NCBI RefSeq assembly: GCF_024502345.1
Contig: NZ_JALDNN010000001.1
Length of the DNA: 64,000 nucleotides
Reading direction: 5' to 3' (one strand)
Source: Escherichia coli
GTDB lineage: Bacteria > Pseudomonadota > Gammaproteobacteria > Enterobacterales > Enterobacteriaceae
A program made the position numbers. This document shows positions 18,201 to 24,200 of this stretch, piece by piece. Numbering within the stretch: position 1 is the first letter of the stretch; every line of letters begins with the position of its first letter.

Positions 18201-21200
18201 GTCTATCAATCTGCATTCTCACCGAACTTACTCGAACGCCCGCGTCTGGAAAGCCATCTACAAAAACTCCTGACCGATGCCGTGAAAATGCGTGGGCTGA
18301 TTGCGCCCGCCAGCAAAGAAACCCGTATTCCAAAATCGATATATGAAGGTATCCAGACCATTAATCGCAATCTGGTTTGTATGCTGGAGTTGCAAATCAA
18401 TGCATACTGGGCCACGCGCCCCAGCCATTTCGTGTTATTGAACGCGCAAAAACTTCGTGATACCCAGCATATGATGCAGCAAATACTGCTGAGCCTTGTT
18501 CATGCGCTGTACGAAGGTAATCCGCAGCCGGTTTTTGCCAATACGGAAAAATTGAACGATGCTGTGGAAGAGCTGCGTCAGTTGCTGAATAACCACCATG
18601 ACCTGAAGGTTGTGGAAACACCAATCTATGGTTATGTGTGGCTGAACATGGAAACGGCACATCAGCTTGAGTTGCTATCGAATCTGATTTGCCGGGCCTT
18701 GCGCAAATAATTCCTGAACTTCAGAATCATCTTGCTGCTGCTTCGATTCAGCAAGGATAAAGGGTATGATAGTGAAAAGGGATAAAAGCATTGTCATCTG
18801 CGGCAGCTATGAGTAATGTTGGCCCTAACGAATAGCGGTTGCTTAAACGAATCCGACTCTCACATTATCAGGGGTATAAAAATGGAAACTACCAAGCCTT
18901 CATTCCAGGACGTACTGGAATTTGTTCGTCTGTTCCGTCGTAAGAACAAACTGCAACGTGAAATTCAGGACGTTGAGAAAAAGATCCGTGACAACCAGAA
19001 GCGCGTCCTGTTGCTGGACAACCTGAGCGATTACATCAAGCCAGGGATGAGCGTTGAAGCAATCCAGGGCATCATCGCCAGCATGAAAGGTGACTATGAA
19101 GATCGCGTTGACGATTACATCATCAAAAATGCCGAGCTCTCCAAAGAACGCCGCGATATCTCCAAAAAGCTGAAAGCTATGGGCGAAATGAAAAACGGCG
19201 AAGCGAAGTAATTCCCGTTTTATTCAATGAGGGTTGCCCGGCAACCCTCATTGCTCATTGATTCTTATTTGTGTATCACCGTCATCATTCTCATCTGAGA
19301 ACCAATCGAAATTAACAACAGCCTTCTTCTGTATGCAGCAAGGCAAAAAGTTCTGTAACTCCATTGTTATTAACTGCACTGGTTACTAACACGTTGTGCG
19401 CTCCAGCTTCCCGTAACCAACTTTTCACCAAAGATATTTGTTCCATGCTGGCTAAATCTGCTTTGGTTACTACTCCAATGACCGGGTGATTCATGGCCCG
19501 GTAGGGCGTTTTTACCTCTAATTCCTGCTTCAGCGCTGAGATTCCTGCTTGTTGCCGGAAAAGCAGGCACCTGCCGTCTGAACGGTATCGATCCGGAAGC
19601 GTATCTGCGCCATATTCTGAGCATACTGCCGGAATGGCCCTCCAACCGTGTTGACGAACTCCTGCCATGGAACGTAGTTCTCACCAATAAATAAGCGTCA
19701 ATACGGTGCTCCGTTGACGCTTACTTTAATCCGTTTTCTGAGCTTAGATTTTTCTGTTCCTACCCAGACCGTGGATTTGGAATTCATTTTTTGTCAGGTC
19801 AATGCTAATCGTTAAAACGGCCATAACGCACCTCCACTGGAAGGTTTATCAGTAATATCCTACCGTTGCTTCATGGTCGGGGCGTCCATTCCATTATTAT
19901 CGGTTTTCCTTTCTGTTTATAAATGAAAACGCCAGCTGTATTCAGGCTGGCGTCAGGGGAAATGAAGCCTGTTGAGTGAGATTCACCGGTTCTGGTGCAG
20001 AAGCTGCAGATGGCGCAGGGTAAGGACATCTTCTCTTGCCTGCTTAATACAGGACAACAGTGCTGTTTCTGTGGTTAATGGCACTATACCCTGCATCACT
20101 GCATTGTCTTACAGCAACTGGTGAGGGCTGGCATAAGTTGCCGGTGTTTCGGTAGAGTCACGGTCATCCACCACGCGGAGTGAATAACCGTTTTCAGCGG
20201 CCTTATTAATCAGTTCAGTGATATTAACACCATCAATGTCAACGACAATGTGCCCCATATCCAGCGCCTGTACGTTAACGCTGTCGGCTTCCAGTGTCAT
20301 CATTTCGCCTCCGGATACTTACCCAGGGTAATGTTATTTACCGTTCTGTAATTGTCGCGGGTCATCAGGCCGGTCGCCCTGCGAGCCCGGAGGATACCCG
20401 CTTACGCGAGAGCAATAAGTGGCTGGCCACCATTCTCGATACAAAACTCTGCTGAATAGCAGCGATTTTCCCAGCGTGGTGCGTCTTTTGCATTTTACTG
20501 GTTCTGAGTTATCAATTATCTGTTCACTAATGACTACTCTAAAAAGTTGTATCAATTTAAGTGATATAGGGAGTCTGGAGATTCACCCTTTTTGGTGATG
20601 AAGTTAACAATACCGCCAATTGCCTGTGAACCGTACAGTACGGAATATGGACCTTTCACTACCTCAACACGCTCCAGCGCAGACTCATCTATCAACAGTC
20701 CCACACCATAATTATCTCCGGCGCGCTGATAAGTTACCTCCTGACCATCAATGAGAATTAAAACACGGGAGGATGCTTCGCCACGAATGCGGATTTGTTT
20801 ACGGCCTGCCAAGGAGTTGTCTGTTATCTCTACTCCGGGGATGTCCTGCAAATTATCGGCTATGGAGGCATTGGTGGAGTTCTGCAATGTTTGTTGGTCA
20901 ATAACCTGTATAGTCGCCGGGCTTTCCCAAAGGTTGCTTGCCGAACGATTCGTGGTCACGACGAGCGTCTCTTCGTTGCTGATTTTTGTTTCTGAAGAAG
21001 TTGCGGTTGCAGTAGAAACTATCCCAGAAATGCATAATGACAGAGTGGAAAGGATATAAATTCGACAAGGTATATTATATAACATTTCATCCCTCATTAA
21101 TACAAAGTACAAATGATTGCTGTAATGATAATTATTTTCATTTATGTTCTCATATATCTATAATTATTGTCATCTTCATAAATTGTAAATATCAAACATT

Positions 21201-24200
21201 TTTGACCTTAATCATGTTTTTTGATAGATATTTTACGACTGAACATATCCGTCGTTTCCTCTGACTCGTGTCAGTCGGTCTCTGGTTGTATCCACGGACC
21301 GCACTCTTGACATAAGAGTGCGGTCCGTGGAAAACGGAGTTGAAAAAATGGTGTCTGAAAGAAGGTACCATCATTGTGATGACAAATACTTTGGCGTGGA
21401 TAATGTAATTAATTGCTGAAATTGACCGTATATGCGGTAAGACTCATATCAGTATCAGGTCCGGTTAATTGCTGATACTAATATAAACTTTTTACAAAAG
21501 GATGAATGCAGAAGGTTACTCTAATGGCCAGAGTGATGACAATGATGGTCAGACGTTGACCTGCAGAAACTGCATTTTAATTGGTCTATAAAGTCTGCAA
21601 GAGGAATCAGGGTCAGATCAGTGAGTCTTATCGCGGCCCGAAGCTATGACTGAAAGAAGGCTGGATACAGAATTGCAACAATTTGGCAATGTCAGAACAC
21701 AGAAGCTTTGCAAGCAGGTGAAAGGTTATGTCTAGCAAAAGGAGTATATCAGAATATATCTACTGATGTACAAAACACAACAATAGCTTCATGATATATA
21801 AATACGTGATGACGAGTGGTACTCCGCATGGTTATTTAACTTCTCAGCACCACTAATGATCCTGAGCAACTTCGTATTTGGGCCATTACCATGGAGTAGA
21901 AAGCTGTGTCTGAGAATGCAGAATTTGAGAAAAGAATTCGCTTTCTTGGAGAGCTTCTGAAAATGGCACGCTAACAACGTTTTGTTAAAAAATGTGAATC
22001 ACTTGCCGGGGTTGCATTTTCTATTCGAGGAGAATGTTGACGTAGATATTACAGAAATCTCAGCGCATCAGGATAAACTGCTACCTTAGGTCAACCACCA
22101 AAAGAAAATACAATACGTCCAGTTTGTATGCCTTTAATAACACATCTTCTAAATGTTGAAGAATTATCCCGCCTGCTGAAGAACGTTGCTCTGAGTGTGA
22201 TAAACCTTTTTATTCTTGATGATGTCAGCGAGAAGATGGAATATATCCCCGACTGGGTCGTGGTTACCCGGTTAAACATCTGGTGGCGCTAATAAATCTG
22301 GCAAGTCACATTCTGTTGAATGCTGTGACAGTGCCTTACCGAGAGAGCGAAATTGTGGTGTTCTAGTGCATAGTCGCCACCATTCCGGATAATTCTATTA
22401 CGTTGTTTTACAAGTTCTTTTACAGCGCAGATCTGTCGCTGACGTTGAATCAATAGCCTGGATTTCAGAACACAATGCCCGTTTGCTGGTTGTTCCGGCA
22501 GTAGCATTAATTCATTATCTGAATGAAATGTGTCAATCCACAGAAACCGCTGTCAATGACGCATTTTGTCGGACGTTAACACGAGAAAGTCTGGCTATTC
22601 CGTAATGCCATCTTATTTCGTAATGGATTGAGAATGCTGGATTTTTAATTATATTACGCGCAGTATTAATCGCGTAAATGTTTTGCGGTCAGCAACGGTG
22701 GGGGATCCATTGTTCTGTTCAATGAATACCATCATACATTTGAATCAGGAGTCGGTATGATGATTTTGGTGACGGGGGGCGCACGGAGCGGGAAGAGTCG
22801 CCACGCAGAGGCGCTTATTGGGGACTCTTCACAGGTTCTGTATATCGCTACCTCGCAAATCCTTGATGATGAGATGGCTGCACGGATAGAACATCATCGG
22901 CAAGGCCGCCCGGAGCACTGGCGCACAGTGGAGCGCTGGCAACATCTTGATGAATTAATTCATGCAGACATTAACCCGAATGAGGTTGTGTTGCTTGAAT
23001 GCGTTACCACAATGGTGACTAATCTGTTGTTTGATTATGGCGGCGATAAAGACCCTGATGAATGGGATTATCAGGCGATGGAACAGGCGATTAATGCTGA
23101 GATTCAGTCGTTGATTGCTGCCTGCCAACGTTGCCCCGCAAAGGTTGTATTAGTGACTAACGAAGTGGGAATGGGGATTGTGCCGGAGAGTCGTCTGGCA
23201 CGACATTTTCGTGATATTGCCGGGCGGGTAAATCAGCAGTTGGCCGCTGCGGCAAATGAAGTATGGCTGGTGGTTTCGGGTATTGGAGTAAAAATCAAAT
23301 GAGTAAATTATTTTGGGCGATGCTCTCATTTATTACGCGTCTGCCTGTACCGCGTCGCTGGTCCCAGGGACTGGATTTCGAGCATTATTCTCGCGGTATT
23401 ATTACTTTTCCTTTGATTGGATTATTGCTTGGCGCGATTAGCGGGCTGGTCTTCATGGTGCTGCAGGCATGGTGTGGCGCACCACTGGCGGCACTGTTTA
23501 GCGTACTTGTGCTGGTGCTGATGACCGGGGGATTCCATCTGGACGGCCTCGCTGATACCTGTGATGGCGTATTTTCTGCACGTAGCCGCGATCGCATGTT
23601 GGAAATCATGCGTGATAGCCGTTTAGGCACCCACGGCGGTCTGGCATTGATTTTTGTGGTACTGGCAAAGATTCTGGTGTTAAGCGAGTTGGCTCTGCGT
23701 GGCGAATCGATCCTTGCATCGCTGGCGGCAGCATGTGCGGTCAGCCGCGGGACTGACGCATTATTGATGTATCGTCATCGTTATGCGCGGGCAGAAGGGC
23801 TTGGCAATGTGTTCATTGGCAAAATTGATGGGCGACAAACCTGCGTCACACTCGGCTTAGCCGCTATTTTTGCTGCCGTATTATTGCCGGGTATGCATGG
23901 TGTGGCTGCTATGGTGGTGACGATGGTGGCGATTTTCATCCTCGGTCAGCTTCTCAAACGTACGCTGGGCGGGCAAACGGGCGATACGCTGGGAGCAGCC
24001 ATAGAGCTTGGTGAACTGGTCTTCCTGCTGGCACTGCTATAAAGAGACGTGAGATGCAAATACTTGCCGATTTACTGAATACGATCCCAGCCATCGATTC
24101 TACCGCTATGTCGCGTGCACAACGGCATATTGACGGGTTACTCAAACCTGTTGGTAGCCTGGGAAAGCTGGAGGTGCTTGCCATACAACTGGCAGGAATG

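Follow-up and report, generated by a model that had tools for sequence, protein, structure and literature searches.

Remains of CP4-44 between tmaR and cobU

The window, i.e., the whole 64-kb stretch of E. coli DNA that was analysed, contains an interval of 3545 bp (19212-22756) between tmaR (yeeX; 18882..19211, plus strand) and cobU (22757..23302, plus strand), compared with 13267 bp between the same genes of K-12 MG1655. The left flanking gene has a translation identical to K-12 TmaR, the right one was recognised as an ORF, and both carry these annotations in every related locus. The left flank differs by 1-3 SNPs from strains L012, D2, 2452 and TOK-001 and by 7 from K-12, and the best 25-kb identity of the window to any complete genome is 98.2-98.5%.

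The first gene of the interval is yoeF (19312..19668, minus strand), a chimeric ORF of 118 aa with one residue different from K-12 YoeF, the C-terminal half of which represents part of an EutP/PduV-type GTPase (residues 58-112 against positions 86-141 of 142 in TIGR02528). As predicted from the sequence and supported by K-12 and Pfam comparisons, it lies over an IS66-family transposase fragment (19536..19691, plus strand; PF13817 DDE_Tnp_IS66_C, E 9.6e-16), which occupies the position of the K-12 pseudogene yoeD and is accompanied by an IS66-type end ...GACGCTTAC near 19725. A complete IS66-family element comprises tnpA-tnpB-tnpC and both inverted repeats, while here there are only a 39-residue C-terminal element of TnpC and one end. 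A DUF957-domain gene fragment follows (19983..20075, minus strand; coordinates from the RefSeq annotation of the collinear, 99.9% identical TOK-001 and D2 loci).

The yeeW gene (20109..20303, minus strand; 64 aa) is intact and 100% identical to K-12 YeeW, and its ATG overlaps the TGA of cbtA as ATGA, just as the original prediction had it. The adjoining 3' stub of cbtA (20300..20396, minus strand; 97 nt) encodes residues 94-124 and the stop codon, without a start codon or the toxin core. Comparison with CbtA, proposed as a check, gave a tblastn match of 100% identity to the K-12 protein (residues 94-125), and the K-12 alignment stops at position 15848 of the K-12 locus (L003). The predicted stub is thus present, although its length is 32 codons and not 33. 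Behind it, yeeW is left as an orphan ORF that could be transcribed only from the neighbouring IS remnant.

This remnant (20397..20585, minus strand; 189 bp) is the left end of an IS2-like element of the IS3 family, 71-72% identical to the left end of IS2, and consists of part of the left inverted repeat and ~55 degenerate codons of orfA. The inverted repeat is without its outer 13 nt, as judged against ATCC 11775 and plasmid CP084536, and of the two inverted repeats and orfA-orfB that define the IS2 group, orfB is absent. On plasmids, we found no closer intact relative than IS2 itself (~72%), and the IS2 relative at 38.4-39.7 kb of the window, considered as a parent, has no significant similarity to the remnant. 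The remnant is present in 2299 of the 5426 complete E. coli genomes.

Next to the remnant lies yoeA (20552..21085, minus strand), the 5' fragment of a TonB-dependent receptor gene with a signal peptide and Plug domain only (PF07715, residues 54-159, E 3.7e-25). The predicted receptor fragment was confirmed: its residues 1-167 match, with 100% identity, the first part of an intact receptor of 715 aa in E. coli 536. The homology stops at 20586, beyond which the last 10 codons run on into sequence of the IS remnant. The fragment corresponds to the plug-only 5' quarter of the gene; the C-terminal 22-strand beta-barrel is missing, whereas the intact homologue of E. coli 536 has a barrel domain. In the window, yoeA is a single uninterrupted ORF of 177 codons, while in K-12 it is split by IS2F. 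The 5-bp target site of IS2F (20780..20784) is unoccupied, as the K-12 alignments overlap by 5 bp around the 1331-bp element, and so is the CTAG target of IS5H (22363..22366), where the overlap around the 1195-bp element is 4 bp. These IS2 and IS5 copies of K-12 were either never received by the window's locus or precisely lost from it.

The remaining part up to cobU (21113..22756) is AT-rich pseudogene debris (35-43% G+C) equivalent to yoeH, yoeG and yeeH, 99.9% identical to positions 6635-5355 and 4159-3766 of the K-12 locus. The expected absence of any ORF of 80 aa or more was borne out, and there was no Rfam match in the debris. It includes an IS4-family fragment (~22265-22453) and a cobalamin-gene fragment (~22462-22605), both named after the RefSeq annotation of loci collinear with this one; a perfect hairpin of 18 bp lies at 21291-21331.

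The 7187-bp deletion and its junction

Direct alignment with K-12 MG1655 (NC_000913.3) covers the whole interval with four collinear retained blocks of 99.3-99.9% identity. This agrees with the original prediction that the interval between yeeX and cobU is the CP4-44 locus, and the K-12 gene order given for it (yeeX-CP4-44-cobU) is correct. The fragments could have proved unrelated to CP4-44, or the K-12 interval equally short; in fact, the fragments show homology to CP4-44 genes, and K-12 has a long interval. The 9722-bp difference in length is the exact sum of three gaps of 7187, 1336 and 1199 bp. All predicted features are present, but the size difference is not entirely a loss here, since ~2.5 kb of it corresponds to K-12-specific IS5 and IS2 insertions. 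Likewise, yoeF, the yoeA fragment and the AT-rich stretch exist as claimed, but K-12 has all three too.

The proposed pairwise alignment mapped the end points of a single internal 7187-bp deletion, which takes yeeP, isrC, flu, yeeR, yeeS, yeeT and cbeA, together with 278 nt from the 5' end of cbtA. A three-way alignment places the junction at 20395..20396, where the last 97 nt of cbtA are fused to the inner end of the IS2-like remnant beside truncated yoeA. It had been expected between 20402 and 20580, ~6 nt away from its actual position, and 20397-20585 is not new sequence but the remnant, which K-12 carries as well. The microhomology at the junction is TA when a K-12-type parent is assumed, and GGATA (20392-20396) for a parent with an IS911-like fragment, here called X.

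The tblastn searches detected no homologues of flu, yeeR, yeeS, yeeT and cbeA in the 64-kb window, flu or any part of the deleted segment gave no tblastn or blastn match there, and there was no Rfam match such as IsrC. The predicted loss of Ag43, CbtA and CbeA holds for the locus and the 64-kb window only. The locus is without Ag43, IsrC, YeeR, YeeS, YeeT and CbeA, and without active CbtA. K-12 has paralogous toxin-antitoxin pairs in CP4-6 and CP4-57, according to PMC5371832.

The exact junction of the window had no contiguous match in the 5426 complete E. coli genomes and was not found in the ORF index or in viral contigs. Its right-hand 35-mer matched six metagenome contigs, all of them K-12-type or X-type and none with the window's junction. 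Among junction-crossing ORFs in the 5.8-billion-protein set, only K-12-type and X-type fusions are recorded.

Break-point reuse and the origin of the deletion

The locus between yeeX and cobU differs in nearly every E. coli genome compared, with many independent reduced architectures (TOK-001, D2, 2452, 2017.15.02CC, BL21, 13TMH22, PSS-08-2, L011 and L012). The reduced alleles of TOK-001, D2, 2452, 2017.15.02CC, BL21(DE3), 13TMH22 and GCA_964050105 (L012) are all flu-less and retain, as does the window, yoeF-yeeW at one end together with the debris near cobU at the other. The right break point of the window is that of 2452, L011, L012 and K-12, and the cbtA break point of 2017.15.02CC lies within 1 nt of the window's. 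However, at the junction the other reduced alleles each show either a partner sequence of their own or a resident IS, and the fusion of cbtA residue 94 with the remnant's inner end, without an IS, occurs in none of the 5426 complete genomes. We consider it highly probable (about 0.88), on the grounds of sequence comparison, that the window carries the locus of the cryptic prophage CP4-44, decayed further and no longer functional. The shrunken CP4-44 without flu is a case of ordinary decay between strains at a very unstable locus; it is a dead remnant and no new system, and no working system is expected there.

We infer that template switching at a short repeat, a RecA-independent form of illegitimate recombination, produced the deletion in the lineage of the window. 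The likeliest parent would be TOK-001-like, with cbtA, cbeA, yeeT, a stub of yeeS, the IS911-like X (117 nt of it) and then the IS2-like remnant. Such a parent would have GGATA at each break point and would lose only 1283 bp in the final step, flu, yeeR and yeeP having gone before; the immediate ancestor may thus have been flu-less already. Alternatively, a K-12-like parent would have lost the 7187 bp in one step, with the TA repeat only. Simple random slippage does not predict what was observed, because several other architectures reuse the right break point and an IS1203-like insertion in 2017.15.02CC coincides, within 1 nt, with the break point in cbtA.

It is possible, if rather unlikely, that IS3-family transposition machinery and not plain slippage made or seeded the deletion. 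An IS could once have occupied the GGAT site of cbtA, or the inner end of the remnant could have served as a pseudo-end or target, and transposase-dependent excision or an adjacent deletion would have removed the IS with the intervening DNA and left only a scar of 2-5-bp microhomology, in agreement with descriptions of copy-out-paste-in insertion sequences. IS-less junctions with 2-4-bp scars and larger IS-adjacent deletions have been described for IS3- and IS30-family elements (bioRxiv 10.1101/2023.06.07.543989). In line with this, the IS1203-like element of 2017.15.02CC is intact and its tip abuts cbtA ≤1 nt from the window's break point, in a junction unique to that genome; the cbeA break point of 2452 is the site at which 13TMH22-type genomes have the left end of an IS3 directly next to cbeA; at least six different sequences are joined to the remnant's inner end; and the window carries an IS2 relative and an IS1. 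On the other hand, no IS stands exactly at the inner end of the remnant in any genome examined, and the IS3 of 13TMH22 is without its first 5 nt, so that its junction is not a clean transposase product. The resemblance of the inner end to IS3 inverted repeats is weak (13-15/40 positions), which makes it unconvincing as a mimic of such a repeat. Moreover, X-type and K-12-type junctions account for nearly all of the 2299 remnant-bearing genomes, which leaves hardly any place for an intermediate with an IS.

The inner end of the remnant, i.e., the right end of the deletion, reads TA/CCCGCT on the plus strand (20395-20402) and is joined, at exactly the same base, to five or more other sequences in other strains. 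The 8-mer AGCGGGTA occurs both there and at a second break point that has been reused, in cbtA, and the 13-kb K-12 interval contains only these two copies of AGCGGGTA/TACCCGCT, at the inner end of the remnant and in cbtA (K-12 15818-15825). End points reused to the base are not expected from random slippage, and the 8-mer shared by the two sites suggests a sequence-specific deletion hot spot. A doubtful extension is that both sites are targets of sequence-specific nicking or strand transfer and that CP4-44 is eroded by a directed process. The nicking activity could come from an IS3-family transposase with pseudo-ends or from an island nickase, e.g., an inovirus-Gp2-like protein; repeated base-precise, one-sided deletions would result, the window's deletion being one product. 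A larger mobile unit was considered, and no inverted repeat of the end sequence was found elsewhere in the window (≤3 mismatches). Four other explanations of the reused end point, judged on sequence and prior knowledge alone, appear unsuitable: the break is 11 nt off the cut expected for an IS66 pseudo-end (GTAAGCG motif), no Chi site lies in the proper orientation, the flank considered for IS200/IS605-type excision is plain IS911-like coding sequence, and restriction sites (e.g., GTAC or GATATC) are not common to all junctions.

That the junction is an artefact of repeats collapsed in a draft assembly is very improbable: its absence from complete genomes and the ORF index would fit, but the flanks are single-copy and collinear, analogous junctions exist at the same base in many real genomes, and there is no repeat long enough for a collapse because the two sides share only 2-5 bp. 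The opposite polarity, with an ancestral short form and an insertion of the 7.2-kb yeeP-flu-...-cbtA segment in K-12, can practically be dismissed, as nothing specific speaks for it, K-12 being derived only in its IS5 and IS2 differences (single-copy target sites in the window), and it is contradicted by the truncated reading frames, with cbtA cut at codon 93/94 and deprived of its start codon and the other side of the junction lying inside a truncated IS orfA, while full-length cbtA-cbeA with identical 3' sequence occurs in many strains and the K-12 segment has no flanking target duplication or element ends.

Significance and relation to known systems

At the strain level, the result is of use for annotation and for predicting the biofilm and aggregation phenotype, as the autoaggregation adhesin Ag43, IsrC and CbtA/CbeA are absent at the locus. 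This state is common to many E. coli strains via other deletions, and the result matters little for the strain of the window. The yeeX-cobU interval is among the most rearranged places of the E. coli chromosome. Should a sequence-specific enzyme lie behind the reuse of end points, the locus would offer a natural model for the removal of dead prophages and IS debris from bacterial genomes.

Of the CbtA/CbeA type IV toxin-antitoxin system, the window retains a true 3' end of cbtA and the ATGA overlap with yeeW. In contrast to that system, only 31 of the 124 toxin residues of full-length cbtA are left (94-124) and the adjacent antitoxin gene cbeA has no match anywhere in the window, so this is not a toxin-antitoxin system here. 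As to mechanism, the copy-out-paste-in elements IS629, with the IS-excision enhancer IEE, and ISApl1 in Tn6330, when lost together with adjacent DNA, leave IS-less junctions with 2-5-bp microhomology beside the IS ends or a few bases inside them. The window has neither an IS at its junction nor, as far as seen, an IEE gene; the repeated erosion of an IS3-family-rich locus may nevertheless be likened to these cases, as a likeness of mechanism only. The closest relative remains CP4-44 of K-12 MG1655 (NC_000913.3 2066020-2078748, b1994-b2006), from which the window differs in having neither the 7187 bp, which include flu (Ag43) with isrC, nor IS2F and IS5H. Both stand at the same chromosomal site, from tmaR/yeeX to cobU, and have in common yoeF/yoeD, yeeW, the IS2-like remnant, the yoeA 5' fragment and the yoeH/yoeG/yeeH debris.

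The CP4-44 locus and its alignment with K-12

The shrunken CP4-44 locus of the window is real and was read correctly, but its biology is ordinary: a known cryptic prophage has eroded further in this allele, and apart from an orphan yeeW no working system survives. The ORF map and sequence place sbmC, yeeA and tmaR (yeeX; 18882-19211, protein identical to that of K-12) upstream of the interval 19212-22756 and cobU, cobS and cobT downstream from 22757, thus the window is in reverse-complement orientation to K-12 here. In the alignment with the annotated MG1655 region 2062000-2082500 (NC_000913.3; L003), the whole interval was covered by four collinear blocks: window 18001-20396 with L003 18243-15848 (99.3% identity), 20395-20784 with 8662-8273 (99.7%), 20780-22366 with 6941-5355 (99.9%), and 22363-24000 with 4159-2522 (99.9%). 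Between the yeeX stop and the start of cobU, K-12 has 13267 bp and the window 3545 bp, and three gaps sum exactly to the difference (7187 + 1336 + 1199 = 9722 bp).

The 7187-bp gap (L003 about 8661 to 15847), for which the window is the derived state, confirms the original prediction that the locus is reduced with loss of flu and cbeA-cbtA. Gone with it are the yeeP pseudogene, isrC, flu, yeeR, yeeS, yeeT, cbeA and the first 278 nt of cbtA, which is cut within its frame so that only residues 94-124 are left (100% identity). The deletion end points were mapped to a junction at window 20395/20396, in ...CCCGGAGGATA|CCCGCTTACG..., some 6 nt beyond the bracket that had been predicted; its other side falls within a truncated IS reading frame. 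In the two remaining differences it is K-12 that is derived. The window lacks IS2F (1331 bp and a 5-bp duplication), with a single copy of its target at 20780-20784, and yoeA is therefore a single 177-codon ORF; the window also lacks IS5H (1195 bp and a 4-bp duplication), with one CTAG at 22363-22366. No homologues of flu, yeeR, yeeS, yeeT or cbeA were found in the whole 64-kb window, and no Rfam family matched window 18700-23400. That the strain has no Ag43, CbtA or CbeA is established for the CP4-44 locus only; K-12 carries paralogous toxin-antitoxin pairs in CP4-6 and CP4-57 (PMC5371832).

Retained prophage pieces and other insertion sequences

The retained yeeW (20109-20303) is identical to that of K-12, its ATG overlapping the cbtA stop as ATGA, and yoeF (19312-19668) differs by one residue. 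YoeF residues 58-112 come from the C-terminus of an EutP/PduV-type GTPase, and the 5' half of the gene overlaps, on the opposite strand, a C-terminal fragment of an IS66 transposase (Pfam PF13817, E 9.6e-16). The yoeA fragment contains the Plug domain only, and its residues 1-167 are a 100% match to the N-terminus of an intact TonB-dependent receptor (715 aa) of E. coli 536 (CP000247, L033 1811-3958; heme/hemoglobin receptor type by NCBIfam, below the curated cut-off), which is the undamaged form of K-12 yoeA. About 455-470 receptor codons are kept in strains 2017.15.02CC and LR536431. The AT-rich sequence at 21113-22756 is K-12 yoeH/yoeG/yeeH debris minus IS5. The parts first described as yoeF-like, receptor-like and AT-rich are thus present, but they are usual components of CP4-44 in K-12. 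Upstream of yoeA there is a perfect inverted repeat of 18 bp with a 5-nt loop (21291-21331); in 13TMH22-type genomes IS3 has its right end against window position 21298, within this hairpin.

An IS2-like remnant, derived from the left end and orfA (20397-20585, 189 bp, 71-72% identity to IS2), is also found in K-12 and in 2299 of the 5426 complete E. coli genomes. From this remnant through yoeA to its upstream region (20397-22366), 0-5 differences in 1970 bp, counted as base changes or single-base gaps, were detected versus 15 other E. coli loci; over the 25 kb around it, identity to the best complete genome is only about 98%. The near-invariance of this segment suggests recent horizontal spread. 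The conjugative IncFIB/IncI plasmid p399-2 (CP084536.1, L029) carries at 3988-5700 a 1.7-kb, 99.5% identical copy of the chromosomal composite, made up of the IS66 fragment, the IS911-like fragment X that adjoins the remnant in most strains, and the IS2-like remnant, whose left inverted repeat is complete in this copy. The orfA remnant is fused in frame to the yeeP GTPase fragment in K-12 (L003 about 8500-9212) and to yoeF, an EutP-like GTPase fragment, in GCA_045585155 (L011), and both junctions read ...SGY|R....

Elsewhere in the window, an apparently intact IS2 relative (38400-39700; orfA 131 aa, orfB 293 aa, 69.5% nucleotide identity to IS2) and an IS1 copy (35861-36628, 98.8% to IS1A) interrupt a yeeJ-like inverse-autotransporter gene (ORFs 36548-38440, 39652-43563 and 43791-45884). 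Two equally scoring IS5-family transposase genes of 322 aa, at 52039-53007 (+) and 53609-54577 (-), are inverted, about 600 bp apart and not K-12 IS5 at the nucleotide level; the pair, which adjoins a heavy-metal sensor kinase gene (54725-56083), looks like a composite or an inversion.

Variability of the locus and probable origin of the deletion

The yeeX-cobU locus is extremely variable, and nearly every one of the roughly 40 opened loci differs in architecture. In TOK-001 a yeeS stub adjoins 117 nt of X, the junctions of D2 and BL21 lie within IS2F, 2452 has cbeA joined to the IS2-like remnant, in 2017.15.02CC the cbtA stub and a longer yoeA are separated by an IS1203-like element, at least 10 genomes of the 13TMH22 type have IS3 adjoining a cbeA stub, and E. 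coli 536 has its intact receptor gene; PSS-08-2, PSS-16, LR536431 and Z1323CEC0015 are further variants. At least 80% of the window interval is covered in 48 complete genomes, contiguously in none, and the exact junction was found in 0 of the 5426. The source strain or lineage is absent from this RefSeq set, since the best identity over the 25 kb from his to cobT (window 1-25000) is only 98.2-98.5%. Loss of flu at the CP4-44 locus is common and the particular allele of the window is simply unsampled.

We favour a parent of the TOK type in which flu was already lost, because the left flank of the window has fewer SNPs versus GCA_964050105, D2, 2452 and TOK-001 (1-3) than versus K-12 (7). When the parent has X beside the remnant, a state seen in TOK-001, ATCC 11775 and most E. 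coli, the break points share GGATA. In a TOK-like parent, loss of a last 1283 bp between the two copies of GGATA would yield the window structure. A K-12-like parent, with break points that share TA only, could also have given it in one 7187-bp step. Either route bears the signature of short-homology, RecA-independent illegitimate recombination; the steps are inferred.

Reused break points

Only the reused break point merits follow-up. At the remnant inner end, one and the same base (TA|CCCGCTTACGCG) has at least six partners in different strains, i.e., the yeeP fragment (K-12), cbeA (2452), yoeF (L011), a yagK/yfjJ-like gene (GCA_964050105, L012), cbtA (the window) and X (most strains). The X-type junction occurs in 445 complete genomes, an ATCC 25922-like variant keeping 24 nt of X in about 1490, and the K-12-type junction in 359, while other types are rare. 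Left break points are likewise reused: cbtA at K-12 15848/9 by the window and by the IS1203-like element of 2017.15.02CC, whose tip forms a junction found in that genome only, cbeA at 15223 by strain 2452 and the 13TMH22-type IS3, which is there without its first 5 nt and shares TTACCC, and cbtA at 15818/9 by D2 and L012. Reuse to the base was noted across E. coli strains at loci L005, L011, L012, L002, L022 and L028.

The 8-mer AGCGGGTA has only two copies in the 13-kb K-12 interval, in opposite orientation, at the remnant inner end (window 20395-20402; L003 8655-8662) and at the cbtA 15818 site (L003 15818-15825). At both sites the motif-bearing side is kept to the base and the other side varies. 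The rule is not absolute, since the TOK-001 and ATCC 25922-type deletions end near the inner end and not at it (117 nt and 24 nt away). Random slippage does not predict such reuse, and we hypothesize, as a rather unlikely explanation, a sequence-specific hot spot for deletion. No IS was found at the remnant inner end in the loci examined, and this end has weak similarity only to IS3 inverted repeats. The nearest described process is transposase-dependent IS excision and adjacent deletion, with scars of 2-4 bp (bioRxiv 10.1101/2023.06.07.543989).
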